Of a stretch of 64,000 bases of DNA, positions 3,691 to 55,240 are shown one piece after another. The DNA is from Patescibacteria group bacterium. Its GTDB lineage: Bacteria; Patescibacteriota; Patescibacteriia; SG8-24. Under the pieces are notes generated by a model. It saw only the letters and a list, made by a program, of their open reading frames with translations, searched no databases and was not told the origin of the DNA. The position numbers were made by a program, and so were the translations under genes. Location of the stretch: positions 705-64,704 of the forward strand of contig JAYEJB010000043.1 of NCBI GenBank assembly GCA_034716415.1, in the 5' to 3' direction. Each line of letters begins with the position of its first letter. Position 1 is the stretch's first letter.

Positions 3691-4390
3691 AGCGCCGACA
3701 ATCAGCATCGTCATTCCGGCTTATCAGCATGCACGCGAGCTGCCGGCGTGCCTTCGGAGTATCCTGGAGCAGACGTATACGGATTATGAGATCATCCTGG
3801 TCAATGACGGCAGCACGGACGGCACGGAGAAGGCGCTCGAGCCGTTCATGGATCGCATCACCTACATCAGTCAGGAGAACAAGGGCGGCAACGCGGCCAG
3901 GAACAGGGGATTCATGCAGGCGGCGGGGCGGTATCTACTTTTCTGTGACGCCGATATCGTGATGCGTCCCGACTGTCTTTCGAAGATGCTACGCGCGCTC
4001 GAGACGACCCCGGACGCGTCTTATGCCTATTGTTCGTTCCGTTACGGCTGGAAGAAGTTCCGGTTGTGGCCGTTCGATGCCGACAGGTTGCGCCAGCTGA
4101 ATTATATCCATACCACCTCGCTCATCCGACGGGAGCATTACCCCGGATTCGACGAATCGATCCGTAAACTGCAGGATTGGGATCTGTGGCTGACGATGCT
4201 CGCGGAGAATCATGTCGGAATCTGGATTTCCGAATACCTGTTCACTGCCATTCCGCACAAAGGCGGCATCAGCACCTGGGTGCCGGGCATCTTTTATCGC
4301 ATCCCATGGCGCAAGCTAGGGATCCGCATGCGTTCGGTCGAGAAGTTCCAGGAAGCGGAAGTGATCATCAGGAAGAAACATGGGTTATGA
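3680..4390 (+). CDS. glycosyltransferase family 2
   Basis: N-terminal ISIVIPAYQ...ILVNDGSTDGT GT-A signature followed by a DxD-like CDAD motif. Confidence 0.75.
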   Translation: MKSEAPTISIVIPAYQHARELPACLRSILEQTYTDYEIILVNDGSTDGTEKALEPFMDRITYISQENKGGNAARNRGFMQAAGRYLLFCDADIVMRPDCLSKMLRALETTPDASYAYCSFRYGWKKFRLWPFDADRLRQLNYIHTTSLIRREHYPGFDESIRKLQDWDLWLTMLAENHVGIWISEYLFTAIPHKGGISTWVPGIFYRIPWRKLGIRMRSVEKFQEAEVIIRKKHGL

Positions 4391-4478
4391 GCTTAAAAGC
4401 TAAACAGCTAAAAAGTCTAAAAGAATCGATTCCTTATAGCTTTTCAGCTTTTGGACTTTTCAGCTTTTAAGCTTCGAT
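4390..4478. repeat. AT-rich palindromic repeat, family 2 (AGCTTTTAAGCT-type), ~89 bp imperfect palindrome between two GT2 genes
   Basis: The left arm gcttaaaagctaaacagctaaaaagtctaaaag is the near reverse complement of the right arm cttttcagcttttggacttttcagcttttaagc. The right arm is ~90% identical to 54144..54165. Confidence 0.55.
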
Positions 4479-5345
4479 ATGGATCTATCGATCGTCATAC
4501 TCAACTGGAAGGTGAAGGAGCTGTTGCGGCAGTGTCTGCTTTCGGTATATCGGTATACGAACGGACTCGATTTTGAAGTCATCGCAGTCGACAACGATTC
4601 ACGGGACGGTAGTGTGGAGATGGTGATGAAGGAATTCCCGCAGGCGCAGGTCATCGCGAACAACCGGAATCTCGGTTTCGCGGCCGGCAACAACCCGGGC
4701 ATCGAAGCGGCACGGGGTGAGTTCGTGCTTCTGTTGAATCCGGATACCGAGCTGATGGATAACGCGTTCGAGGCGATGGTTCGCGTCATGCGTGCCAATC
4801 CTGATGTGGCGGTGCTCGGGCCGACGCTGTTGAATACCGATCGCTCCTTGCAACCGTCAGTGCGGGGCTTCCCCACACCGTTGTCGCAGGTGCTCGTCAT
4901 GCTCAAGCTTCATAATTTCTTTCCCAGGCTCAAGCCGGTCATGGAATATTTTTCCAGCGGATTCGACTACCTCGCGCCGTCGAGCGTCGATCAGGTCATG
5001 GGTGCGGCGTTCATGGTCAGGCGGTCGGTGTTCGAGAAGCTGGGACTGCTGGACGAGCGGTTCTTCATCTGGTTCGAGGAGGTCGATTTCTGCAGACGTG
5101 CGGTCGACGCGGGTTATGGTGTGATGTACACGCCGAAAGCGCGTATCGTACATCATGGCGGTGAGAGTTTCGGGCAGGTGTTCGGTCCGAAGAGACAACA
5201 TTATTTGAATTCGAGCCTGCTGAAGTATATGCGAAAGCATTTCGGTCTTGTTGCGGCGATCGGGCTGGCGATACTCTATCCGGCATCCATGACACTGGCC
5301 TGGCTCGCTGAATTTTTCGGACTCAGCGGTACGGGGCGAAGATAG
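4479..5345 (+). CDS. glycosyltransferase family 2 (rhamnosyltransferase-like)
   Basis: LSIVILNWK...VIAVDNDSRDGS GT-A signature, followed by FAAGNNPG and a DxD-like EEVDF motif. Confidence 0.75.
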   Translation: MDLSIVILNWKVKELLRQCLLSVYRYTNGLDFEVIAVDNDSRDGSVEMVMKEFPQAQVIANNRNLGFAAGNNPGIEAARGEFVLLLNPDTELMDNAFEAMVRVMRANPDVAVLGPTLLNTDRSLQPSVRGFPTPLSQVLVMLKLHNFFPRLKPVMEYFSSGFDYLAPSSVDQVMGAAFMVRRSVFEKLGLLDERFFIWFEEVDFCRRAVDAGYGVMYTPKARIVHHGGESFGQVFGPKRQHYLNSSLLKYMRKHFGLVAAIGLAILYPASMTLAWLAEFFGLSGTGRR

Positions 5346-5350
5346 TTCAT

Positions 5351-6952
5351 ATGAACGACAAGGTCAGACTATTTCTCTTACTGGTCAGCGGATACGTGTT
5401 GTTGGAGCTGTTGTCCTGGATCGGCTATAACGATCCGATGTGGAGCAGCCTGTTCTTTTTTATCGTCGTCTTGGCGGTCGCTGTCTTGGCCTGGTTCAGG
5501 CCGGGTCTCGCCGTGGTCGTCGTGCTGGGAGAGCTGTTTGTCGGTTCACAAGGCGGTTACATGCTCACTGTCGGACCGGCGAACGTGGACGGGGCGATAT
5601 TATCTTTAAGAATGGGGCTATTTTTAGCCTTATTCGGACCATGGCTCGCGAGAACGGCATTAGGTCTTTTGTCATTGCGAGGAGCGGAGCGACGAAGCAA
5701 TCCCGACGAGATTGCCGCGGTCCCCCGGATCAAGTCCGGGGTCCCTCGCAATGACAAGGGGTTGGGATGGTATTACGTCATGAAGGAGACAAAGCTGCTG
5801 TGGCCGTACGTGGCGCTCCTCATGGTGTTCGCGTTCGGCGGACTGCGTGGCTTGCTGGCCGGCAACGGATTCGGTAACGTCTTTTTCGACGCCAATGGTT
5901 ACGCGTTCTTCGCGCTTTTTCCGGCGTTCATGGGAGGCTTGCGAGACCTGAGGGCGCGTCGTTTGATGTGGTACGTGCTCGCGGCTGCGGTCACCGTTTC
6001 AGTCGCCAAGGCGCTCGCTGTAATGTATTTCTTCTCGCACCGTCTTTACTACGTCGCAGCGAACATGTACTTGTGGGTCAGGGACACCAGGGTCGGGGAG
6101 GTGACTTTGACGGTCGCCGATTTCCATCGCGTGTTTTTCCAGTCGCATCTTTATGTTCTTGTGGCGATATTTACGGTCTTCCTGTTCGCGGCCAGCGCCA
6201 AGTCAATCAGAAAACCGGGTTTCTGGATCCCGTTCGGGTTGCTGGTCTGGGGAATTATCGCCATGGTACTGGGTCTGTCGCGTAGTTTTTGGTTCGGCGG
6301 ATTCATCGCGGCGCTGACGATGATTGGTCTGCTCATATGGACGAAGGCCGGGAAGGGCCTATGGGGTCGCATGGCGATCGTCGCGCCGGCTTCTCTTGTC
6401 CTGGCGATCGGTATCATCGCCGGAATCTACGCCTTCCCGTTTCCTACCAAGACCGGTGACCTGTCGTTCATGTCGATGTTGAGCGGGCGCGCGTTTTCAT
6501 TAGCTGGTGAGGCCGCCGCGAACAGCCGCTGGACCTTGCTGAAGGAGATGTGGCCGGCCGGCATGGAACACCCGATATTAGGGAGCGGTTTAGGCACCAC
6601 GGTCACATACAGGACCGAGGATCCGCGCCTCTTGGTCGACAACCCGACCGGCGAGTACACTACGTTCGCGTTCGAATGGGGCTACCACGACCTATGGGTC
6701 AAGTTCGGCGTGCTGGGCCTGCTGGTCTACGCCTGGCTCATTGCGGTCATTTTGACGCCGTATTTCGTGTCGTTGAAGATGTGGAAACGCGAAAGCGGCG
6801 CGAATCGCGCGGATGCCATCGTGTTGATAGGTATTATCTCCGGCATGGTAGCCATGCTCGCGACCAATGTTTTCAGCCCATACCTGAACCACCCGCTGGG
6901 AATCGGCCTGCTGATGGCTGTGGCGGCGATTGGGTATAAGAGAGGGGACTAA
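5351..6952 (+). CDS. O-antigen ligase/polymerase-like polytopic membrane protein carrying an in-frame copy of the family-1 MITE
   Basis: 533 aa with >10 TM segments, in the glycan cluster. Residues ~107-136 (LSLRGAERRSNPDEIAAVPRIKSGVPRNDKG) are encoded by repeat copy 5669..5757. Confidence 0.5.
   Translation: MNDKVRLFLLLVSGYVLLELLSWIGYNDPMWSSLFFFIVVLAVAVLAWFRPGLAVVVVLGELFVGSQGGYMLTVGPANVDGAILSLRMGLFLALFGPWLARTALGLLSLRGAERRSNPDEIAAVPRIKSGVPRNDKGLGWYYVMKETKLLWPYVALLMVFAFGGLRGLLAGNGFGNVFFDANGYAFFALFPAFMGGLRDLRARRLMWYVLAAAVTVSVAKALAVMYFFSHRLYYVAANMYLWVRDTRVGEVTLTVADFHRVFFQSHLYVLVAIFTVFLFAASAKSIRKPGFWIPFGLLVWGIIAMVLGLSRSFWFGGFIAALTMIGLLIWTKAGKGLWGRMAIVAPASLVLAIGIIAGIYAFPFPTKTGDLSFMSMLSGRAFSLAGEAAANSRWTLLKEMWPAGMEHPILGSGLGTTVTYRTEDPRLLVDNPTGEYTTFAFEWGYHDLWVKFGVLGLLVYAWLIAVILTPYFVSLKMWKRESGANRADAIVLIGIISGMVAMLATNVFSPYLNHPLGIGLLMAVAAIGYKRGD
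5669..5757. repeat. MITE-like repeat family 1, 89-bp copy inside a CDS (in frame, no stop)
   Basis: ttgtcattgcgaggagcggagcgacgaagcaatcccg...cggggtccctcgcaatgacaa, with terminal inverted repeats ttgtcattgcgag/ctcgcaatgacaa. Confidence 0.6.
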
Positions 6953-17050: not shown

Positions 17051-17290
17051 TTGTCATTGCGAGCGGACGCGTCTGCCTATCGGTAGGAAGCAATTCCGTC
17101 GGTTTAAGCCTGATTCACGGGATTGCTTCGTCGCTTCGCTCCTTCCCGCCACATATCTCTAATTCAGAGAAGGCGGGACCCCGCCATGGGCGGGGCGCAA
17201 TGACAAAAGGGGTGAAGAGGCGGAGAAAGACGACGAAGCAATTCCGTCGGAATCGCTTCGTTCCCAGGCTCGCGAGCCGGAGCCCTCATA
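17051..17290. repeat. MITE-like repeat family 1, compound copy downstream of clpB
   Basis: ttgtcattgcgagcggacg...gaagcaattccgtcgg...cgggattgcttcgtcgcttcgc...cttcccgccacatatctctaattcagagaaggcgggaccccgccatgggcggggcgcaatgacaa plus a second gcaattccgtcggaatcgcttcg unit. Confidence 0.6.
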
Positions 17291-21002: not shown

Positions 21003-21794
21003 ATGTATGGATTCAAGCGGATAAAGATATTGGGAATACCGGTCGATGCGGTGACCCAAGATAAGGCGGTCGAAGTAGTTGCTGACTTTTTGCACGATAA
21101 AGCCGGGCAGAAGGTCTTCACACCTAACCCGGAGATGCTAGTCATGGCGCGGGACAGACCATTATTCAGGGAAGCCTTACAGTCATCAGACCTGTCCATC
21201 CCGGATGGAGCCGGGCTCCTTTGGGCCGCGCGCCTGCTCGGGAAGGATTTGCCGACGCGCGTCACCGGCACGGACATGGTTTCGCGTGTCTGTGGCCTGG
21301 CCGCGGAGGACGGATACGGCATTTTTATGTTGGGTGGGCGACCGGGCGTCGCCGAAAAGGCGGCAGACAGACTAAGAGCCGAGTTTCCGGGATTGCGCAT
21401 CGTCGGCGCGATGAGCGGTGGCCAGGTGAAGTATGACGAAGAGGGAGCACCGATCATGGATTACGGTACCGAACGCGCACTGAATCTCGCTGTGCCGGAT
21501 ATCCTGTTCGTGGCTTTCGGACATGGCAAGCAGGAGGAGTGGATCCACACGCATCTTCAAAAGTTTCCCTCGGTTCGGGTGGCACTCGGCGTCGGGGGTG
21601 CGTTCGATTTCATCTCCGGCGAGTCTAAGCGGGCGCCGGATTTTATGCAGCGGATCGACCTGGAATGGCTCTGGCGGCTCGTCTTGCAGCCTTGGCGTAT
21701 TGGGCGTATTCTGACAGCCACGGTCGTTTTTCCGCTTTTGGTGTTAGGAGAACGGCTGGGAATCGTAAAAACCGAGCTAAAAAGCCTATCGTGA
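21003..21794 (+). CDS. WecB/TagA/CpsF family glycosyltransferase (GT26)
   Basis: ILGIPVD...KVFTPNPEMLVMA...IPDGAGLLWAARLLG...FMLGGRPGVAEKAA...LGVGGAFDFISGESKRAP. Confidence 0.75.
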   Translation: MYGFKRIKILGIPVDAVTQDKAVEVVADFLHDKAGQKVFTPNPEMLVMARDRPLFREALQSSDLSIPDGAGLLWAARLLGKDLPTRVTGTDMVSRVCGLAAEDGYGIFMLGGRPGVAEKAADRLRAEFPGLRIVGAMSGGQVKYDEEGAPIMDYGTERALNLAVPDILFVAFGHGKQEEWIHTHLQKFPSVRVALGVGGAFDFISGESKRAPDFMQRIDLEWLWRLVLQPWRIGRILTATVVFPLLVLGERLGIVKTELKSLS

Positions 21795-21838
21795 TGATGC
21801 TTTTAAGCTGTTGAGCTTTTAAACTTTTAAACTCTGAT

Positions 21839-23353
21839 ATGGTACGCATCAGGTTTGCGCCGTCACCGACGGGATTTCTGCACGTGGGAGGCTTACGCAC
21901 CGCGCTTTATAGCGAGCTGTTCGCCAGGAAGCATGGTGGCGTCTTGATATTGCGGATAGAAGATACGGATCAGGCACGGACCGTTGAAGGAGGCATCGAA
22001 AATATCATTAAAACGCTCGAGTGGGCGGGGATTCAGGTGGATGAAGGGCCGTACATCGATAAGGATGGCAGGCTCGCGCAAAAGGGTGACTTCGGGCCGT
22101 ATATCCAATCGGAGCGCACGGATATATATAAGGAGCAGGTCGAGAAGCTTTTGGAGGGCGGGCACGCTTACCGATGTTTCTGCTGTACGGACACCCTGGC
22201 GAAGATGCGTGAAGAACAGCAGAACGAGGGTGGGCGCACGATGTACGACGGGCGCTGTAAGAATCTGACCGAGAATGAAGTCGCCAAGGAACTGGAGAAG
22301 GGGACTGAATACGTGGTGCGTCTCAAGGTGCCGGACACGGGCGTGACCGCGTTCGACGACGAGATCCGGGGACGGATCGAATTCAGCAACAGTCAGATCG
22401 ATGATCAGGTATTGATGAAGTCCGACGGATTTCCGACCTATCATCTGGCGAACGTCGTCGATGACCACCTGATGGGCGTGACGCATGTGGTGCGCGGCGA
22501 GGAATGGTGTCCCTCGACCCCCAAGCATGTCCTGCTTTATGAAGCGTTCGGCTGGGACAAGCCCGTATTCGCGCATGTACCGCTGTTGTTGAACACGGAC
22601 AAGTCGAAGCTCTCCAAGCGGCAGGGGGACGTCGCGGTCGAGGATTATCGGGATAAAGGTTATCTGCGGGACGCGCTCATAAATTTCGTGGCGTTGCTGG
22701 GCTGGAACCCGACTGCGGACCGGGAGATATACTCGAAGGAAGAGATGATCAAGGCGTTCGATCTGCGCAAGATCAACAAGGGCGGTGCCGTCTTCAACGT
22801 CGAAAAGTTGGATTGGATGAACGGAGAGTATCTGAAGAAGCTCACTGACGGCGATTTGGCGGAAGCCGCGCTGCCTTTCTATGTCGATGCCGGTGTTTTC
22901 GTCGTGCAGGCCGGGAAGTTGATATCCGAAAACATGGGTGAGCCGCTGGAACTGGGCTATCTCGAACAAGTGGTGCCGCTGGAAAAAGAGCGCGTCAAAA
23001 AGCTGAGCGACCTGCCGCAGGCGACGGACTTTTTCTTCCGCGATCTGCTTGAATACGAGGTAGACATGCTACCATGGAAGAAATCGACCGCTGACGTCGC
23101 TCGGGTGAGATTGCGGACCCTAGTTGACCTATTGAAGGAAATGCCGGACAAAAATTTCAAGAACGCGGAAAAGTTGGGCGACGAGGTGCTGAAATACATC
23201 GCCGACAGGGGATACACCAACGCGGAGACACTGTGGCCCATGAGGGTGGCGTTGACCGCCAGCAAGGCCTCACCGAGTCCGTTCGAGGTTGCGGCGGTCC
23301 TGGGTAAGGAGAGGACCATCGCGCGCATGAAGCACGCATTATCGATGTTGTAA
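21839..23353 (+). CDS. gltX: glutamyl-tRNA synthetase
   Basis: RFAPSPTGFLHVGGLRTAL (HIGH-like) and KLSKRQG (KMSKS-like). Confidence 0.9.
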   Translation: MVRIRFAPSPTGFLHVGGLRTALYSELFARKHGGVLILRIEDTDQARTVEGGIENIIKTLEWAGIQVDEGPYIDKDGRLAQKGDFGPYIQSERTDIYKEQVEKLLEGGHAYRCFCCTDTLAKMREEQQNEGGRTMYDGRCKNLTENEVAKELEKGTEYVVRLKVPDTGVTAFDDEIRGRIEFSNSQIDDQVLMKSDGFPTYHLANVVDDHLMGVTHVVRGEEWCPSTPKHVLLYEAFGWDKPVFAHVPLLLNTDKSKLSKRQGDVAVEDYRDKGYLRDALINFVALLGWNPTADREIYSKEEMIKAFDLRKINKGGAVFNVEKLDWMNGEYLKKLTDGDLAEAALPFYVDAGVFVVQAGKLISENMGEPLELGYLEQVVPLEKERVKKLSDLPQATDFFFRDLLEYEVDMLPWKKSTADVARVRLRTLVDLLKEMPDKNFKNAEKLGDEVLKYIADRGYTNAETLWPMRVALTASKASPSPFEVAAVLGKERTIARMKHALSML

Positions 23354-44755: not shown

Positions 44756-45898
44756 TTAGTCCACCAGAATCCGAGGCAGTGTCGGGTTGATCCTCGTCAC
44801 CACTTCATAGTTGATGGTTCCGATCCTGTCAGCAAGTTCTTCCGCGGTTATCTCCTCCCGGTTCTGTCTACCTAGTATCACCACTTCGTTCTCGACCTTC
44901 ACTCCGCGCATGTCGGTGACATCGACGACGCACATATTCATGCAAATCCGACCAAGCACCTTAGCTCGCTCGCCGTGAATGAGGACGTTGCCCACCGATG
45001 ACATCTTCCTGTCATACCCGTCCCAGTATCCTACCGGCACGACCGCGCCGATAGTGTCCCTGGTCACTCTTTCGGTCAGTCCGTAACTCACCGGGGTCCC
45101 CTTCTTGATCTTCTTGACCTGCGCGACCGAGCTTTTCCAGGTCATCGCCGGCTTGAGTCGAATCTTTTTCCCCGAATCCAGCACAGCGCGCCGCGTGACT
45201 CCGGATGACCATAGGCCGTATAGGGATATTCCGGCACGCACGATATCGAAATGGGTCTCCGGATACATCAGGATGGCCGCACTACAGGCCGTGTGAAGCA
45301 TCTCGGGCGGACGTCCGGCTTCAGTCGCCATCCTGACCGCGTCCCTGAACTTACTCAACTGCTTCATGGCATAGCTCGAATCGTTCGTGTCTTCAATGTT
45401 CGCGTAATGCGTGGACATCCCCTCAAGCTTCAGGTTCGGTTGTTTGGCGATGAAACGTATGAACGAAGACATCTCTTCGGGGCAGACGCCCTGTCTTGAG
45501 GTTCCGGTCTCCACTTTGACATGAATCTTGGCCGGATTACGTTTCGAAGCCGCGTGCGACAGGCCAGACACGGTCTCCCTGTCGTAGACCACTTGACTGA
45601 ATCCCTGGCGAACCACCCTCGCGAGAGCCTTCGACGGCGTAAAACCCATGATCAATACCGGCTTCTTGTTCGAGACAGCTGACCGTACGGCTTCGGCTTC
45701 CGGCAGTGAATCCACACCGAACCAGTCCGCAACACTTCCGACCGAGCGAACCGTCTCCTTGATTCCATGTCCGTAGGCGTTCGATTTGACCACGGCCATG
45801 AAACGCGTACCGGAACCGATGCAACGCTTCAACTCACCGGCGTTATGCCGGAGCGCGGATTTTGATACTTCGACCCAAGTGCGGGTTGATGGGTTCAT
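44756..45898 (-). CDS. alr: alanine racemase
   Basis: PLP-site AVVKSNAYGHG. ~380 aa. Confidence 0.85.
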   Translation of the reverse strand: MNPSTRTWVEVSKSALRHNAGELKRCIGSGTRFMAVVKSNAYGHGIKETVRSVGSVADWFGVDSLPEAEAVRSAVSNKKPVLIMGFTPSKALARVVRQGFSQVVYDRETVSGLSHAASKRNPAKIHVKVETGTSRQGVCPEEMSSFIRFIAKQPNLKLEGMSTHYANIEDTNDSSYAMKQLSKFRDAVRMATEAGRPPEMLHTACSAAILMYPETHFDIVRAGISLYGLWSSGVTRRAVLDSGKKIRLKPAMTWKSSVAQVKKIKKGTPVSYGLTERVTRDTIGAVVPVGYWDGYDRKMSSVGNVLIHGERAKVLGRICMNMCVVDVTDMRGVKVENEVVILGRQNREEITAEELADRIGTINYEVVTRINPTLPRILVD

Positions 45899-45907
45899 AT
45901 TTTTCTT

Positions 45908-46203
45908 TCTGTGGCGGGGCAGGGGCCCCTCCTGCGTAGTTGACCGGTCTTAGGGAGCTTCGCTTCGCTCTGGTGAAATCCGTGCAAGTGAGGTGTGGTT
46001 TCTGTGGCGGGGCAGGGGCCCCTCCATCCAGACTGACCGCTCCTAGGGAGCTTCGCTTCGCTCTGGTGTTGTGGCGGACCAGGGGGTCCTCCGCTGATAC
46101 TGACCGCTCCTAGGGTGGTTCGCATTGCTCTGGTGTTGTGGCGGACCAGGGGGTCCTCCGCTGATACTGACCGCTCCTAGGGTGGTTCGCATTCGCTCTG
46201 GGA
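45908..46203. repeat. tandem direct repeats, 4 x ~68 bp: units 45908-45975, 46001-46068, 46069-46135, 46136-46203
   Basis: Units (t)tgtggcgg[ggcaggggcccctcc|accagggggtcctcc]...ctgaccg(g/c)tc(t/c)tagggagcttcgcttcgctctggtg. Each carries a short palindrome, aggggcccct or ggaccagggggtcc. Confidence 0.7.
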
Positions 46204-46249
46204 ACTTCGTGCCAAGAGTGACGTGCTTTCTATGGTTCCCGGGTACATT

Positions 46250-46363
46250 CCTGTGTACAAGTCATACGACTTGCACACAGGAAGAACCCGGCAACTACTG
46301 CTCGGCTGACCGGCTTGCACACAGGAAGAACCCGGCAACTGGTGTTCGGCTGACCGACTTGCG
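46250..46363. repeat. perfect 14-bp-stem hairpin (cctgtgtacaagtc atac gacttgcacacagg) followed by 2 x ~44-bp direct repeats (cttgcacacaggaagaacccggcaact..tg.tcggctgaccg)
   Basis: Read directly from the sequence. Confidence 0.65.
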
Positions 46364-46369
46364 TAATGG

Positions 46370-47686
46370 CTAGCGTTTCTCTATTACCTTCTTGCCATTC
46401 ATGAACGGCACAAGGACTTCCGGAATCGCGATGCTTCCGTCTTCTTTCTGATAGTTCTCCATGATGGCCACGAGCGCCCTACCGATCGCAATGGCGGTGG
46501 CGTCGTTCATGTGTGCGTGCTGTGTCTCACCGTCATTCCTGCGCACGCGCGTCCCGAGACGCCTAGCCTGATAATCCGTCATCAGATCGGCGGTGTGCGT
46601 CTCACGATACGCGTCCTGTCCGGGCATCCAGCATTCCATATCGATCTGTCTGGCATCCGGATCACCCATGTCTCCCGTGCAGATGGCGACTACTTGGTAC
46701 GGCAATTTGAGCGCCTGAAGCACGTGTTCCTGGATCGCAATGAAGAAGTCCTGCTCACCACAGGATTTCTCCGGCAGGGTGAACGATTCTATCTCGAGCT
46801 TGTCGAACTGGTGCAGGCGGATGATGCCGCGGATGTCCTTGCCGTACGATCCGGCCTCGCGCCTGAACGCCGGCGTGAACGCCGCATAGCGGAGAGGTAA
46901 ATCGTTCTCACGCAGTATCTCGTCCATGTGCATCGGTCCGAGCGTGTGTTCCGCACTGCCGATGAGATACAGGTCGTCGGACGCAATGTGATAGCGCTCC
47001 TCCTTGGGTTCCAACCTGGCCATACGCGCGAACACCTCCGGTCGGATCATCAACGGCGGCACGACCGGAATGAACGGTGTGTCCGGCACGTCGAGCTTGG
47101 CTTTCTTGATGATCTTACCCAGCGTCTTGCTGTCCGTAAGGACCGACATGACGAACTGCATCAGCGCGAACTGCATCAGGGCCAACCCCCCTTTCAGATA
47201 GACGAACCGGCTGCCGGTCACCTCTGCGGCGGACTTGGAGTCGATCACACCCAGCGCCTCACCCAACTCCACATGGTCTTTCGGATCGAACTTGAATTTC
47301 GCGGGCTTACCCACCTGACGAATCACCTTATTGCCCGATTCGTCCGGCCCGACCGGAACATCATCGAACGGTACGTTCGGCACGGCAAGAAGCAACTGTT
47401 CGTATCGGTCGACGGTCTCCTCCAGATCCTGCCCGGCGATCTTGAGACCTTCCTTGAGCTCACGCATCTCCGCTATCGCCTCTTTCTTTTCCTTGTCATC
47501 CTTCAACGATGCGATCTTTTCGCCGGCGATGTTCTGCGCGGCGCGCTTGGTCTCGACAGTGGCGATGAGCTCGCGCCTTTTCTCGTCGAGCTCAAGCAGA
47601 CGATCGATGTCGACCTCTACGCCTCGATTTTTCGCCCCCTCCTCGACCTTGTCGGGATTCTCTCTGATGAACTTGATATCTAACAT
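46370..47686 (-). CDS. serS: seryl-tRNA synthetase
   Basis: N-terminal coiled-coil arm and the class II core (motif 2 FRREAGSYGKDIRGIIRLHQF, motif 3 region). ATG at 47686 chosen. Confidence 0.9.
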   Translation of the reverse strand: MLDIKFIRENPDKVEEGAKNRGVEVDIDRLLELDEKRRELIATVETKRAAQNIAGEKIASLKDDKEKKEAIAEMRELKEGLKIAGQDLEETVDRYEQLLLAVPNVPFDDVPVGPDESGNKVIRQVGKPAKFKFDPKDHVELGEALGVIDSKSAAEVTGSRFVYLKGGLALMQFALMQFVMSVLTDSKTLGKIIKKAKLDVPDTPFIPVVPPLMIRPEVFARMARLEPKEERYHIASDDLYLIGSAEHTLGPMHMDEILRENDLPLRYAAFTPAFRREAGSYGKDIRGIIRLHQFDKLEIESFTLPEKSCGEQDFFIAIQEHVLQALKLPYQVVAICTGDMGDPDARQIDMECWMPGQDAYRETHTADLMTDYQARRLGTRVRRNDGETQHAHMNDATAIAIGRALVAIMENYQKEDGSIAIPEVLVPFMNGKKVIEKR

Positions 47687-47938
47687 ATGTACGTGTTGTT
47701 TCACTTGAATAATAATGCCATTTTCGGCCTAATGCCGCAATCTGAGTAGTCGAGAAGCTCAAAAGCCTAAAAGGACATTATTTAAATACCTCCCGCTAAG
47801 GAGGCTGATTCTGTTCGAATTACGCGCGAACCTAATCAACCCCCGTCACAGGAGGTCGAGGACGACATGACGGTCGTCTGATCCGATTTTCGCATTATCA
47901 TTTCCATGCTTGAACCGTATCGTACCATATCCGCGATG

Positions 47939-48388
47939 TCAAATATCCAAAGCCCGGCATATCGCCGATGTCGAATAACGTTTCCGCTCGAACGCGTCCA
48001 GCTGGATGATCTGCGGGCGTGTCACGAGCCGTCCGATCTGCGCCATTATCTTTGGATGGTCCACATTCTGATCATGTCCGAGGCATATCACGTCTGGCGC
48101 CAACTGCTCGACCATCGTCCATGCCCCGGCAGGATCGCCCGGCACTACCTCATCGACGCACTCGAGTGCCGACAGCATGGACATCCGCTCCTCCAATCGG
48201 TAATACGGTGCTCTCCCCTTCTCCGCCTGCACCCTCTCATCCCGAGTGGCAACGACGATGAGCCGGTCACCACGCTGTCGAGCCGCCTTCAGGAACATGA
48301 GATGTCCGGGATGCAGCAGATCGAAAACCCCGAAAACCACAACGACTTTCGGCCTCGTCTCTCCCGCGCCGCTCTCCAATCCCGACAT
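47939..48388 (-). CDS. cytidylyltransferase-like nucleotidyltransferase (TagD/RfaE-domain-II/FMN-adenylyltransferase-like)
   Basis: VVVFGVFDLLHPGHLMFLKAA (HxGH nucleotidyltransferase motif). 3 nt downstream of lysS. Confidence 0.55.
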   Translation of the reverse strand: MSGLESGAGETRPKVVVVFGVFDLLHPGHLMFLKAARQRGDRLIVVATRDERVQAEKGRAPYYRLEERMSMLSALECVDEVVPGDPAGAWTMVEQLAPDVICLGHDQNVDHPKIMAQIGRLVTRPQIIQLDAFERKRYSTSAICRALDI

Positions 48389-53924: not shown

Positions 53925-54170
53925 CTAGGAATCTGAATCCTAAGAGCTAAACGGCTTAAAAGCCTAAAAGCTTTTTTAGAATGAACCCATAACGAGTTTC
54001 ATGCCCTTCGATGCGTAGCTGTAGGCTTTATGCCCGCCCGTCTCTCGCCAAGTTCTGGGCAGGGACAAGCCCTGCAACTACGGCAAACCGACGAAAAACG
54101 CGCCATGATTTCAATTTAATAACTTTTCAGCTTTTTAGCTGTTAAGCTTTTGGACTTTTAAGCTCTTTAT
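53925..54170. repeat. family-2 AT-rich palindromic repeat arms flanking the mreC-mreB spacer (gagctaaacggcttaaaagcctaaaagc ... cagctttttagctgttaagcttttggacttttaagctc)
   Basis: The right arm 54128..54165 is ~90% identical to 4446..4467. The left arm is a partial inverted copy. Confidence 0.5.
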
Positions 54171-54172
54171 CT

Positions 54173-55240
54173 TCAATACGCGGCAATCATGTCCTTTTGT
54201 GTCTCCTGTGAAGACGGCAAGGCGACGGTCTGCAGAAGATCGGGATTGTCGAGCAGGATGCCCGTGCCGCGCACCACGCAGGTCAGCGGATCGTCCGTAA
54301 TACGGACCGGGATAGCCGCAGCTCTGGAAATGACGGTATCCATTCCTTTCAATAAGGCGCCCCCACCCGAAAGAACGATGCCCCGTTCATAGATGTCGGC
54401 GACCAATTCGGGCGGCGTCATCTCAAGCGCGGCTTTGATGCTTTCCGAGATAGACTTCACTGACCGCGACAGGGACTGACGGATCTGCGCGTCGCTGACC
54501 ATTATCTCCTTCGGCAATCCGGTGATCATGTCTCGTCCGCGCATTTCAATCTCCAACGGCTCATCGAGCTCCATCGCCGAGCCGGTCCTCATCTTGATGT
54601 TTTCGGCCACACGCTCTCCGAGCAGGAGGTTGAAATTTTCGCGGGCGAAATTGACGATGCTCTTGTTCATCTCGTCGCCGGCTATACGCAACGACCTCCA
54701 GGTCACGACCCCACCGAGCGAGATGACGGCGATCTCCGTGGTCCCGCCGCCGATATCCACCACCATGTTGCCGAGCGGTTCGGTGATCGGCAACCTCGCT
54801 CCGATAGCGGCCGCCATCGGCTCCTCTACCAGGAAGACCTCACGCGCACCGGCGTTCAAGGCGGCGTCCTCGACCGCCTTCCTTTCCACCTCAGTCAGAT
54901 CAAGCGGCACACCGACCACGACCCTCGGTCGCGGCATCAGCGAGAAGCCGTCCTTAAGGATCCGCTCGATGAAATACTTGAGCATCTTTTCCGTGACCTC
55001 GAAGTCCGAGATGATCCCCGAAACGAGTGGTCGCACCGTCACGATATGCGACGGCGTCTTGCCGACCATGTCCTTGGCGGACTGACCGACAGCGACGATC
55101 TGACCTGTCCGCGTATTCAAAGCCACCACCGATGGTTCGTTGATGGCGATTCCCTTGTCCTTACAATAAATCAGAGTATTGGCTGTACCGAGATCGATAC
55201 CGAGATCTTTGGAGAATTTTCCGAATATGCTACTGAACAT
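54173..55240 (-). CDS. mreB: rod shape-determining protein MreB
   Basis: Actin-fold phosphate-1 motif GIDLGTANTLIY and the motifs further downstream. Confidence 0.9.
   Translation of the reverse strand: MFSSIFGKFSKDLGIDLGTANTLIYCKDKGIAINEPSVVALNTRTGQIVAVGQSAKDMVGKTPSHIVTVRPLVSGIISDFEVTEKMLKYFIERILKDGFSLMPRPRVVVGVPLDLTEVERKAVEDAALNAGAREVFLVEEPMAAAIGARLPITEPLGNMVVDIGGGTTEIAVISLGGVVTWRSLRIAGDEMNKSIVNFARENFNLLLGERVAENIKMRTGSAMELDEPLEIEMRGRDMITGLPKEIMVSDAQIRQSLSRSVKSISESIKAALEMTPPELVADIYERGIVLSGGGALLKGMDTVISRAAAIPVRITDDPLTCVVRGTGILLDNPDLLQTVALPSSQETQKDMIAAY

Follow-up and report, generated by a model that had tools for sequence, protein, structure and literature searches.

A repeat array between serS and alr in a Patescibacteria genome: a structured intergenic element of about 190 bp, amplified in place

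Between serS, the gene for seryl-tRNA synthetase, and alr, the gene for alanine racemase, a stretch of 64,000 nucleotides from a Patescibacteria genome (GenBank assembly GCA_034716415.1, contig JAYEJB010000043.1, positions 705 to 64,704; hereafter the window) carries a spacer of 471 bp (45899-46369), with a G+C content of 59% compared to 55% for the window as a whole. This spacer is filled by direct repeats, as stated in an earlier note on the sequence and confirmed here with both Tandem Repeats Finder (TRF) and a repeat search, which raises the question of what these repeats are, where they come from and whether they serve alr. The present analysis shows that the array is a single element of about 190 bp, the modules of which have been tandemly amplified in place, that the spacer is a lineage-specific insertion, and that the inserted sequence is one of a family, other members of which occupy a different locus in two related genomes. 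The array is thus, we think with fair though limited confidence, a structured non-coding intergenic repeat that was amplified locally and is tolerated as a co-transcribed passenger, not a dedicated regulator of alr. Among the options listed in the earlier note, a satellite-like expansion of mobile-element sequence came closest and is essentially right.

The Alr protein of the window is 100% identical to a protein from a metagenome-assembled genome (MAG) in the NCBI database named 'Patescibacteria group bacterium', and remoter matches are named Candidatus Uhrbacteria. The contigs that encode the next-closest Alr proteins (74-78% identity) served as the relatives, and all of them keep the gene order greA-lysS-cytidylyltransferase-serS-alr-ddl-(335-aa open reading frame, ORF)-ftsH. 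The serS-alr gap is 3 bp (TGA-CAT-ATG) in contigs L001-L004 and, with the genes as called, 37-38 bp in L005 and L006; in L007, it amounts to about 13 bp after correction of a truncated alr call. The comparison of the spacer in related genomes that had been proposed earlier thus gives 3-38 bp in five relatives vs 471 bp in the window, and no part of the array is found at any of these relatives' serS-alr loci (five related loci compared). Therefore the 471 bp are a lineage-specific insertion or expansion, not a conserved alr leader or serS 3' untranslated region. The same comparison leaves another suggestion of the earlier note, a structured leader or promoter of alr-ddl, unsupported, as do an inverted copy in another genome and the absence of a sigma-70-like promoter, both described below.

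TRF detects a period of 67 bp in 2.5 copies (46032-46201, 93% matches, score 303) and a period of 44 bp in 2.2 copies (46267-46362, 90% matches, score 164). The repeat search resolves four 70-nt units that start at 45906, 45999, 46066 and 46133, with a spacing of 93, 67 and 67 bp. Two units of 44 nt follow, starting at 46267 and 46311. In these terms, the spacer consists of four head units of 67-93 bp, ordered A, A, B, B, then a long and strong hairpin, and finally the 44-bp unit in 2.2 copies (Table 1). Four units in this order and two 44-bp units had been recognized before; the period of about 68 bp assigned to all four is not valid for the A type, in which it is 93 bp because a 23-bp linker separates A1 from A2. 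The exclusion of CRISPR also stands, the units being arranged head to tail (67-93 bp and 44 bp) with no unique spacers between them. Neither the unit motif nor the 44-bp motif occurs again in the window, and the observed counts were reached in 0 of 100 shuffles.

Several details of the initial description change when the copies in other genomes are aligned and the structures are examined. Homology with these copies reaches position 45899, so that the array is flush with the alr ATG instead of starting 10 bp from it. The two palindromes that had been listed separately are one and the same 7-bp head hairpin, predicted by RNAfold on both strands, with alternative apical stems, GGGGC/GCCCC in A units and GGACC/GGTCC in B units. 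The supposedly perfect 14-bp stem is actually a pair of 16-nt arms with 94% complementarity: 9 and 6 bp are separated by a single mismatch, a G-U wobble when read on the minus (gene-sense) strand, and the stem extends to about 27 pairs. For this long hairpin, the predicted free energy amounts to -43.5 kcal/mol (z = -8.7) for the minus strand and -38.4 kcal/mol (z = -9.5) for the plus strand. It alone stands out; a head unit taken singly is no more stable than its shuffled versions (z of about -1).

The complete element of about 190 bp comprises a head with its hairpin, a linker of about 30 nt, the long hairpin and a tail. On the plus strand of the window, the head starts with ATTTTTCTRTGG, followed by the 7-bp GC hairpin and then by CTGACCG...TTCGC..GCTCTGG, and the tail ends with ..CTCGRCTSACCG. 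The window array is one such element with the head present four times and the tail 2.2 times.

Copies of the element elsewhere were sought with the pattern TGTGGCGGNNCAGGGGNNCCTCC, which matches all four head hairpins and was run on genome and metagenome collections. The collection of species-representative genomes yielded four single matches in unrelated taxa, about the chance expectation, and among metagenome contigs 13 loci were matched, of which L014 alone is a real homologue. Viral contigs searched with the head, the tail, the 44-bp unit and the conserved linker gave 0 matches, and blastn against phage genomes gave no match to the element. L014, which comes from the same Joint Genome Institute sample as the relatives L001 and L004, contains one A-type head and the linker, most similar to A2; they follow a DUF2207_C gene and end 6 nt before the ATG of a CoA_binding_2 gene, in the same orientation to the downstream gene as in the window. 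Homologues of this CoA-binding protein led to L027, a contig of GCA_975965465.1, the same MAG as L007, in which the serS-alr junction is empty. Here, the head, linker, long hairpin and tail are each present once in the orthologous DUF2207/CoA-binding spacer, with 77.7% identity to the window over 157 bp (BLAST) or 71% over 191 bp (global alignment). This copy is inverted relative to the flanking genes, and its head adjoins the stop codon of the upstream gene. The orthologous sites are empty in L025 (86 bp), L026 (56 bp) and L028/L029 (10 bp). The sequence inserted between serS and alr is thus a member of a family that two related genomes carry at another locus, in both orientations and with empty orthologous sites, and that is shared, in at least two subtypes (A and B), within a clade of Uhrbacteria-like Patescibacteria.

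The DUF2207/CoA-binding site has additional peculiarities. Upstream of the head and linker, L014 contains three direct repeats of 26-40 bp ending in CTAAGCGGGAA, each with a small GC hairpin (1352-1458), and this cluster of hairpin cassettes holds the position that the long hairpin and tail modules have in L027 and in the window. The L014 CoA-binding gene (1527-1994) is recorded (P0121) as 155 aa, with a TTG start inside the element (MRRGPCPATENMPMSD...), compared to 138-141 aa for its orthologues; the 11-residue N-terminal extension is read from the element. The 'empty' spacers of L025 (880-965, GAGAGAAGCGAGAGAAGTGAAAGAAGG) and L026 (553-608, GCACGAGAGCACGACAGCTCGACAGC) have simple purine-rich repeats of their own, and the site seems to be generally prone to repeats.

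The core columns that distinguish the two subtypes (four stem positions, two further substitutions and one indel) are all in the A state in L014 and in the B state in L027, and therefore both subtypes are older than these copies. Within the window, the A1, A2 and B units can be told apart (71-87% identity), and B1 and B2 are 97% identical. The combination of A and B at one locus suggests more than duplication in situ, namely a second insertion beside the first or gene conversion. In an alignment of six copies from three genomes, all cells (100%) of the head hairpin (GGCGGNNC-loop-GNNCCTCC) are paired. Two of its pairs have both partners replaced between A and B, and no shuffle attains the covariation score; this stem difference may be a single evolutionary event. 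For five of the long hairpin's 24 consensus pairs, both bases in L027 are different from those in the window and still pair, and the single wobble of this hairpin is on the gene-sense strand in both genomes. A second candidate head hairpin (GCTCC-TAG-GGAGC) was rejected, being paired in 70% of cells and broken in the B units and in L027. Between the window and the L027 genome, the element is 71% identical, compared to 66-73% for alr, ddl and serS DNA and 52% for the spacer upstream of serS. Given this coding-level identity, the element is either under purifying selection or younger than the divergence of the genomes, and both are expected of a repeat family obliged to keep its recognition features.

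Table 1. Features of the serS-alr locus and of the repeat array in the window
Feature	Position	Strand	Remarks
serS (seryl-tRNA synthetase)	46370-47704	minus	NCBIfam TIGR00414, 1.9e-121; 5' of the array in the sense of transcription
Tail units	46267-46362		44 bp x 2.2: C1 46267-46310, C2 46311-46354, partial third; segment present once in L027
Long hairpin	46235-46295		about 27 pairs; arises from an inverted partial copy of the 44-bp unit
Linker	46203-46235		46208-46235 (CGTGCCAAGAGTGACGTGCTTTCTATGG) 28/28 identical to L027
Head unit B2 (B subtype)	46133-46202		all B-diagnostic positions in common with the L027 copy
B2 head hairpin	46140-46159		equivalent to the A1 head hairpin
Head unit B1 (B subtype)	46066-46135		no linker
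B1 head hairpin	46073-46092		equivalent to the A1 head hairpin
Head unit A2 (A subtype)	45999-46068		nearest relative is the L014 copy, 84-89% identity
A2 head hairpin	46006-46025		equivalent to the A1 head hairpin
Diverged linker copy between A1 and A2	45976-45998		23 bp; can be aligned to both the L014 linker and the one that follows B2
Head unit A1 (A subtype)	45899-45975		A-rich end (minus strand CACAGAAAGAAAAAT) adjoins the alr ATG
A1 head hairpin	45913-45932		GGCGGGGC-AGGG-GCCCCTCC; 7 pairs, one conserved mismatch
76-codon ORF through the repeats	45895-46125	minus	TGA overlaps the alr ATG (ATGA); judged spurious
alr (alanine racemase)	44756-45898	minus	NCBIfam TIGR00492, 1.8e-94; directly 3' of the array
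ddl	43664-44746		downstream of alr
337-aa ORF	42641-43654		downstream of ddl; no Pfam match; position labelled ftsQ in the earlier note

No sigma-70-like promoter was found in the array on either strand with strict and relaxed scans (best score 6/12); the best promoter-like sites are upstream of serS, TTGACA-17-TACGGT at 47942 (9/12) and TTGCGG-17-CATTAT at 47740 (7/12). There is no terminator-like site on the minus strand between serS and alr (45600-46700), the first one being located at about 42,440, after the 337-aa ORF. Two specific candidates were also discarded: the hairpins are not intrinsic terminators because they run into A-rich or mixed sequence without a U-run, and a sigma-54 promoter in the linker was rejected by eye, since TGGCACG occurs there without the -12 GC and the A-type linker lacks this motif. 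Lacking its own promoter or terminator, the array is therefore most likely transcribed as part of the serS-alr-ddl mRNA, which would start from the signals upstream of serS and include the ftsQ-like gene.

Taken together, these observations are consistent with a scenario in which an element that is, or formerly was, mobile would have landed exactly between the stop codon of serS and the start codon of alr. The insertion would then have been enlarged by tandem duplication of its modules, possibly plus a second insertion in view of the presence of both A and B, and slipped-strand mispairing or unequal recombination might account for the amplification. On the mRNA, the four short GC hairpins and the long one of -43 kcal/mol might act as barriers to ribonucleases (RNases) or as cleavage sites, by analogy with the BOX, ERIC, Correia and REP repeats, and a stem of about 27 bp would be of the kind that is cut by RNase III in Correia elements (PMC2649163, PMC3049150). 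Translation of alr would start independently at the unstructured A-rich end (CACAGAAAGAAAAAU-AUG), replacing the ancestral translational coupling of serS and alr. If the analogy with these families is valid, the hairpins probably affect mRNA processing and break this coupling.

Several points weigh against the interpretation of the array as a passenger of mobile origin. The family is represented by three loci only, one in the 64-kb window and one in about 30 kb of the L007/L027 MAG, so that 'dispersed' and 'mobile' rest on few observations, and the two filled DUF2207/CoA-binding sites could reflect common ancestry plus loss and inversion, not two independent insertions. The three-genome alignment reveals no terminal inverted repeats (TIRs): the only inverted repeats are the internal arms of the long hairpin, and the ends, ATTTTTCT... 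and ...CTSACCG, are not complementary. No clear target-site duplication is seen at either the serS/alr or the DUF2207/CoA-binding site, where the empty-site genomes are only about 70% identical; nor was a conserved flanking target found, the left flanks at the three available sites being TCAT, GCAT and ACAG. Among the 50 ORFs of the window that were scanned, none matches a transposase or integrase family. Co-transcription and the effects of RNases are proposed by analogy. Finally, in two of the three loci the head is flush with a start codon and in the same orientation, and a cis-acting leader would look alike.

This last observation is the starting point for an alternative that we consider unlikely, namely that the array is a cis-regulatory 5' module (a promoter, leader or translation-initiation cassette) and that its multiplication tunes alr-ddl, possibly freeing these genes from serS control. 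The heads in the window and in L014 both end in an unstructured A-rich stretch 0-6 nt from the downstream ATG, and the element is as conserved as coding DNA. There are precedents as well: the MIRU-containing senX3-regX3 spacer has promoter activity (PMC4213456), and BOX modules are able to stimulate downstream genes (PMC3049150). However, a module of this kind is absent upstream of alr in all five relatives, the L027 element is inverted with its head beside the stop codon of the upstream gene, and no promoter-like hexamer pair scores above 6/12 on either strand. The GGAGG of the head is located 24-29 nt from the ATG, within a stem. Furthermore, Rfam 15 gives 0 matches at the gathering score in the whole window, with only sub-threshold noise from eukaryotic small nucleolar RNAs and microRNAs in the spacer; together with the absence of the array in the relatives, this also led us to reject a riboswitch, a T-box or a tandem aptamer.

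The element of about 190 nt might also be a free-standing gene for a structured non-coding RNA, partly duplicated in the window. Compensatory changes in both hairpins, a perfectly conserved 28-nt single-stranded block, an orientation independent of the flanking genes and the shared gene-sense wobble of the long hairpin would all fit such a gene. We nevertheless regard it as improbable because no promoter or terminator flanks the element on either strand, L014 retains the head and linker only, single heads fold like shuffled sequence, and Rfam provides no match. In addition, duplication of internal modules and presence or absence at orthologous sites are atypical of a housekeeping RNA.

Quite improbable, in our assessment, though the evidence on this option of the earlier note speaks clearly neither for nor against it, is an array of DNA sites for a sequence-specific protein (a regulator, a nucleoid or partition protein, or a recombinase) that reads CTGACCG and TTTCTRTGG beside the hairpins or cruciforms. 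The array does contain five CTGACCG and one TTGACCG, all in one orientation within 420 bp, as well as all three occurrences of TTTCTRTGG in the window, and the conserved blocks are sequence-specific and not merely structural. Operators and iterons are, however, typically far shorter than these units, the 50 ORFs scanned around the array include no candidate for the binding protein, and the compensatory stem changes indicate a single-stranded fold, not recognition of a duplex. No other TTTCTRTGG-hairpin-CTGACCG cassettes with different stems are present in the window.

An assembly artefact, that is, a chimeric or mis-resolved repeat in a short-read MAG, is very improbable. The source is indeed a MAG, and tandem repeats are prone to copy-number error, especially with B1 and B2 nearly identical, but L014 and L027, independent assemblies of other samples, both contain homologous units, the A1, A2 and B units are distinguishable, and the junctions with serS and alr are clean, with both genes intact; a wrong copy number would be the worst case. 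Hardly credible at all is a small protein translationally coupled to alr through ATGA, as the overlap of its stop with the alr start and the ORFs overlapping neighbours described for MIRUs (PMC3184786) might suggest, given that the 76-aa ORF has no Pfam match and no homologue among 1.84 billion representative proteins, the concatenated open-frame translation of the units finds nothing at E <= 10 in a word-indexed database of 5.8 billion proteins, the 67-bp period shifts the reading frame between units, and the L027 element is inverted.

With the array interpreted as an amplified, tolerated intergenic repeat, the closest functional and architectural analogues appear to be BOX and MIRU, whereas ERIC and Correia share the behaviour of co-transcribed RNase targets found in either orientation; neither its sequence nor its host places the element in any of these four families. 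BOX elements of Streptococcus pneumoniae (boxA-boxB(n)-boxC) contain tandem arrays of boxB, are co-transcribed with their neighbours and include spurious ORFs (PMC3049150). The present element similarly is a modular, non-coding intergenic repeat with one internal module in a variable number of tandem copies, with stem-loops predicted on transcription and spurious ORFs on either strand. It differs in that it comes from another phylum, has no sequence relationship to BOX and lacks TIRs, which BOX possesses; BOX is present in more than 100 copies per genome, compared to one locus per 30-64 kb here.

MIRUs consist of units of 77 and 53 bp, are co-transcribed in the senX3-regX3 intercistronic region, and have empty and filled sites between species (PMC3184786, PMC4213456); they have been reported only from the Mycobacterium tuberculosis complex and M. 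leprae (PMC4213456). Common to MIRU and the present element are tandem units of 40-100 bp that fill an intra-operon spacer, oriented with transcription in the window (L027 has an inverted copy), variants of one unit in two lengths (93 and 67 bp here), GC-rich internal inverted repeats and an empty site in related species (PMC3184786, PMC4213456). The MIRU ORF overlaps both neighbours, whereas the ORF in the window overlaps on the alr side only, with no ORF start at the serS stop, and is probably meaningless. The long-hairpin module and the inverted copy at another locus are further differences, and the host is a Patescibacteria MAG; it is by host range, not by consensus comparison, that the element is set apart from MIRU.

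ERIC elements have been linked to RNase E and Correia (NEMIS) elements to RNase III, their long mRNA hairpins being substrates of these enzymes with consequences for the flanking cistrons (PMC3049150, PMC2649163). Like these, the present element is 100-200 bp long, is located in probably transcribed intergenic regions in either orientation, shows presence or absence between related genomes and would form a long hairpin in the mRNA. The ERIC and Correia hairpins are, however, built from TIRs and accompanied by TA target duplications, in contrast to the internal hairpin described here, for which neither TIRs nor target-site duplications were seen.

REP, BIME and REPIN sequences are imperfect palindromes of 21-65 bp that form alternating clusters in high copy number and have a cognate RAYT, and the PATEs derived from IS200/IS605 elements carry subterminal hairpins at both ends, have no TIRs or target-site duplications, and insert 3' of a fixed 4-5-nt target. 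The present element resembles both groups in its short, GC-rich imperfect hairpins with a conserved mismatch, the conserved single-stranded motifs that flank them, the lack of TIRs and of any clear target duplication, and the location of hairpins near both ends of the full-length form. Compared to REP, BIME and REPIN, the head hairpins are direct and not alternating, a single locus is present in 64 kb, and no RAYT or Y1 transposase is found among the 50 ORFs. A PATE would be expected to show a fixed target; for the present element, the left flanks of three sites are available, as given above, and no transposase was found among these ORFs. The hallmarks of miniature inverted-repeat transposable elements (MITEs) are TIRs, a target-site duplication and many dispersed copies per genome; the present element does not have the TIRs that define them. 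The scan of the 50 ORFs also gave no cas, reverse transcriptase or Y1_Tnp-like match, and the template and variable repeats of a diversity-generating retroelement, or a retron, were rejected because of the missing reverse transcriptase and because the differences between units are not adenine-specific.

The window itself contains palindromic elements of another kind, called family-1 MITEs in the earlier note, which stated that a motif of the array also occurs in them. The 14-mer GCTTCGCTTCGCTC is indeed present there exactly, once (11175-11188), but the whole similarity ends at this point, and derivation of the array from family 1 was rejected. These elements are located at 1-210, 5649-5715, 11058-11200, 11827-11860 and 17128-17256, with the sequence TTGTCATTGCG ... 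GAGCGGAGCGACG..GCAATCCC..GGGATTGCTTCGCTTCGCTC..TAATGACAA, and share the 14-mer only with the A-type head units.

The surroundings of the array present several features of their own. Upstream of serS, the window contains a cytidylyltransferase-like gene and lysS. At its longest, the serS ORF begins with a GTG at 47704, and alignment with the relatives places the true start probably at the ATG at 47686 (MLDIKFIR...). Further downstream, ftsH is missing at the position where the relatives have it, between the 335-aa ORF that follows ddl and the DUF4342 and DsbA-like genes; in the window, the 337-aa ORF is directly followed by an 82-aa ORF and a DsbA-like gene (42062-43654 in the window, 7246-10782 in L001).

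The region upstream of serS on the minus strand (47788-47942) contains the promoter-like site at 47942 followed by a conserved ORF of 20-23 codons. In the window, this leader ORF (47907-47836) encodes MEMIMRKSDQTTVMSSSTSCDGG*, and it includes an invariant run of at least three Ser codons that overlaps an ACCUCC segment; its end reads ..VMSSSTSCDGG* in the window and ..VSSSASG*, ..VSSSTSG* and ..GSSSSSSGGGG* in the relatives. The Ser codons are followed by GGGGGU(UGA) and then by a GCCUCC/GGGAGG hairpin with a T-rich tract (47805-47788); according to RNAfold, the 2:3 pairing and the 3:4 terminator hairpin are alternatives. Counterparts are found in L001 (3272-3400), L005 (1204-1330), L006 (2026-2100) and L007 (2262-2400), with the position of the hairpin kept and its sequence changed. 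The leader is a candidate for a ribosome-mediated, Ser-sensing attenuator of serS and, in the relatives, also of the tightly coupled alr-ddl. There is room for a simpler explanation, in which the hairpin merely terminates the upstream lysS operon; the second promoter-like block at 47740 is located downstream of the hairpin. Arrays of T-tracts with an 8-bp period (AGCTTTTC / CTTTTAAG) are present close by (about 47745-47770) and at 4390-4479, 12859-12894, 13393-13434, 21786-21839 and 54109-54178. Some of these immediately precede a gene (a GT2 gene at 4479, gltX at 21839 and serS), and one separates two convergent genes. The arrays may represent a further family of repeats, or else phased-bend or UP-like elements.

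A more speculative possibility, to which we assign a low probability, is that the cassette is the substrate of an unrecognised hairpin-dependent transposition system (single-strand, HUH-like) or an orientation-tolerant RNA module that rewires operons in Patescibacteria. The 28/28 linker block, the compensatory stems and the coding-level identity are compatible with either. In the case of an RNA module, the cell-wall genes alr-ddl would have been uncoupled from serS, which is apparently under the control of a Ser-codon attenuator.

The family appears to be undescribed; its kind, a small structured intergenic repeat or intercistronic minisatellite, is known from other bacteria. The genomes of Patescibacteria are small and densely packed, very few transposases have been recognised in them, and our literature search found nothing that describes small non-autonomous repeat families in this phylum. 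The serS-alr locus shows that such elements exist in Patescibacteria, and that they are able to wedge into the 3-bp junction of essential, translationally coupled genes and to expand into minisatellites. In these MAGs, assembly errors and length differences between strains are likely to occur at an array of this type, and gene callers extend or invent ORFs within the element, as in the case of the L014 CoA-binding gene. With the conserved 28-mer and the two covarying hairpins, it should become possible to track down the remaining members of the family and to ask what mobilises it.

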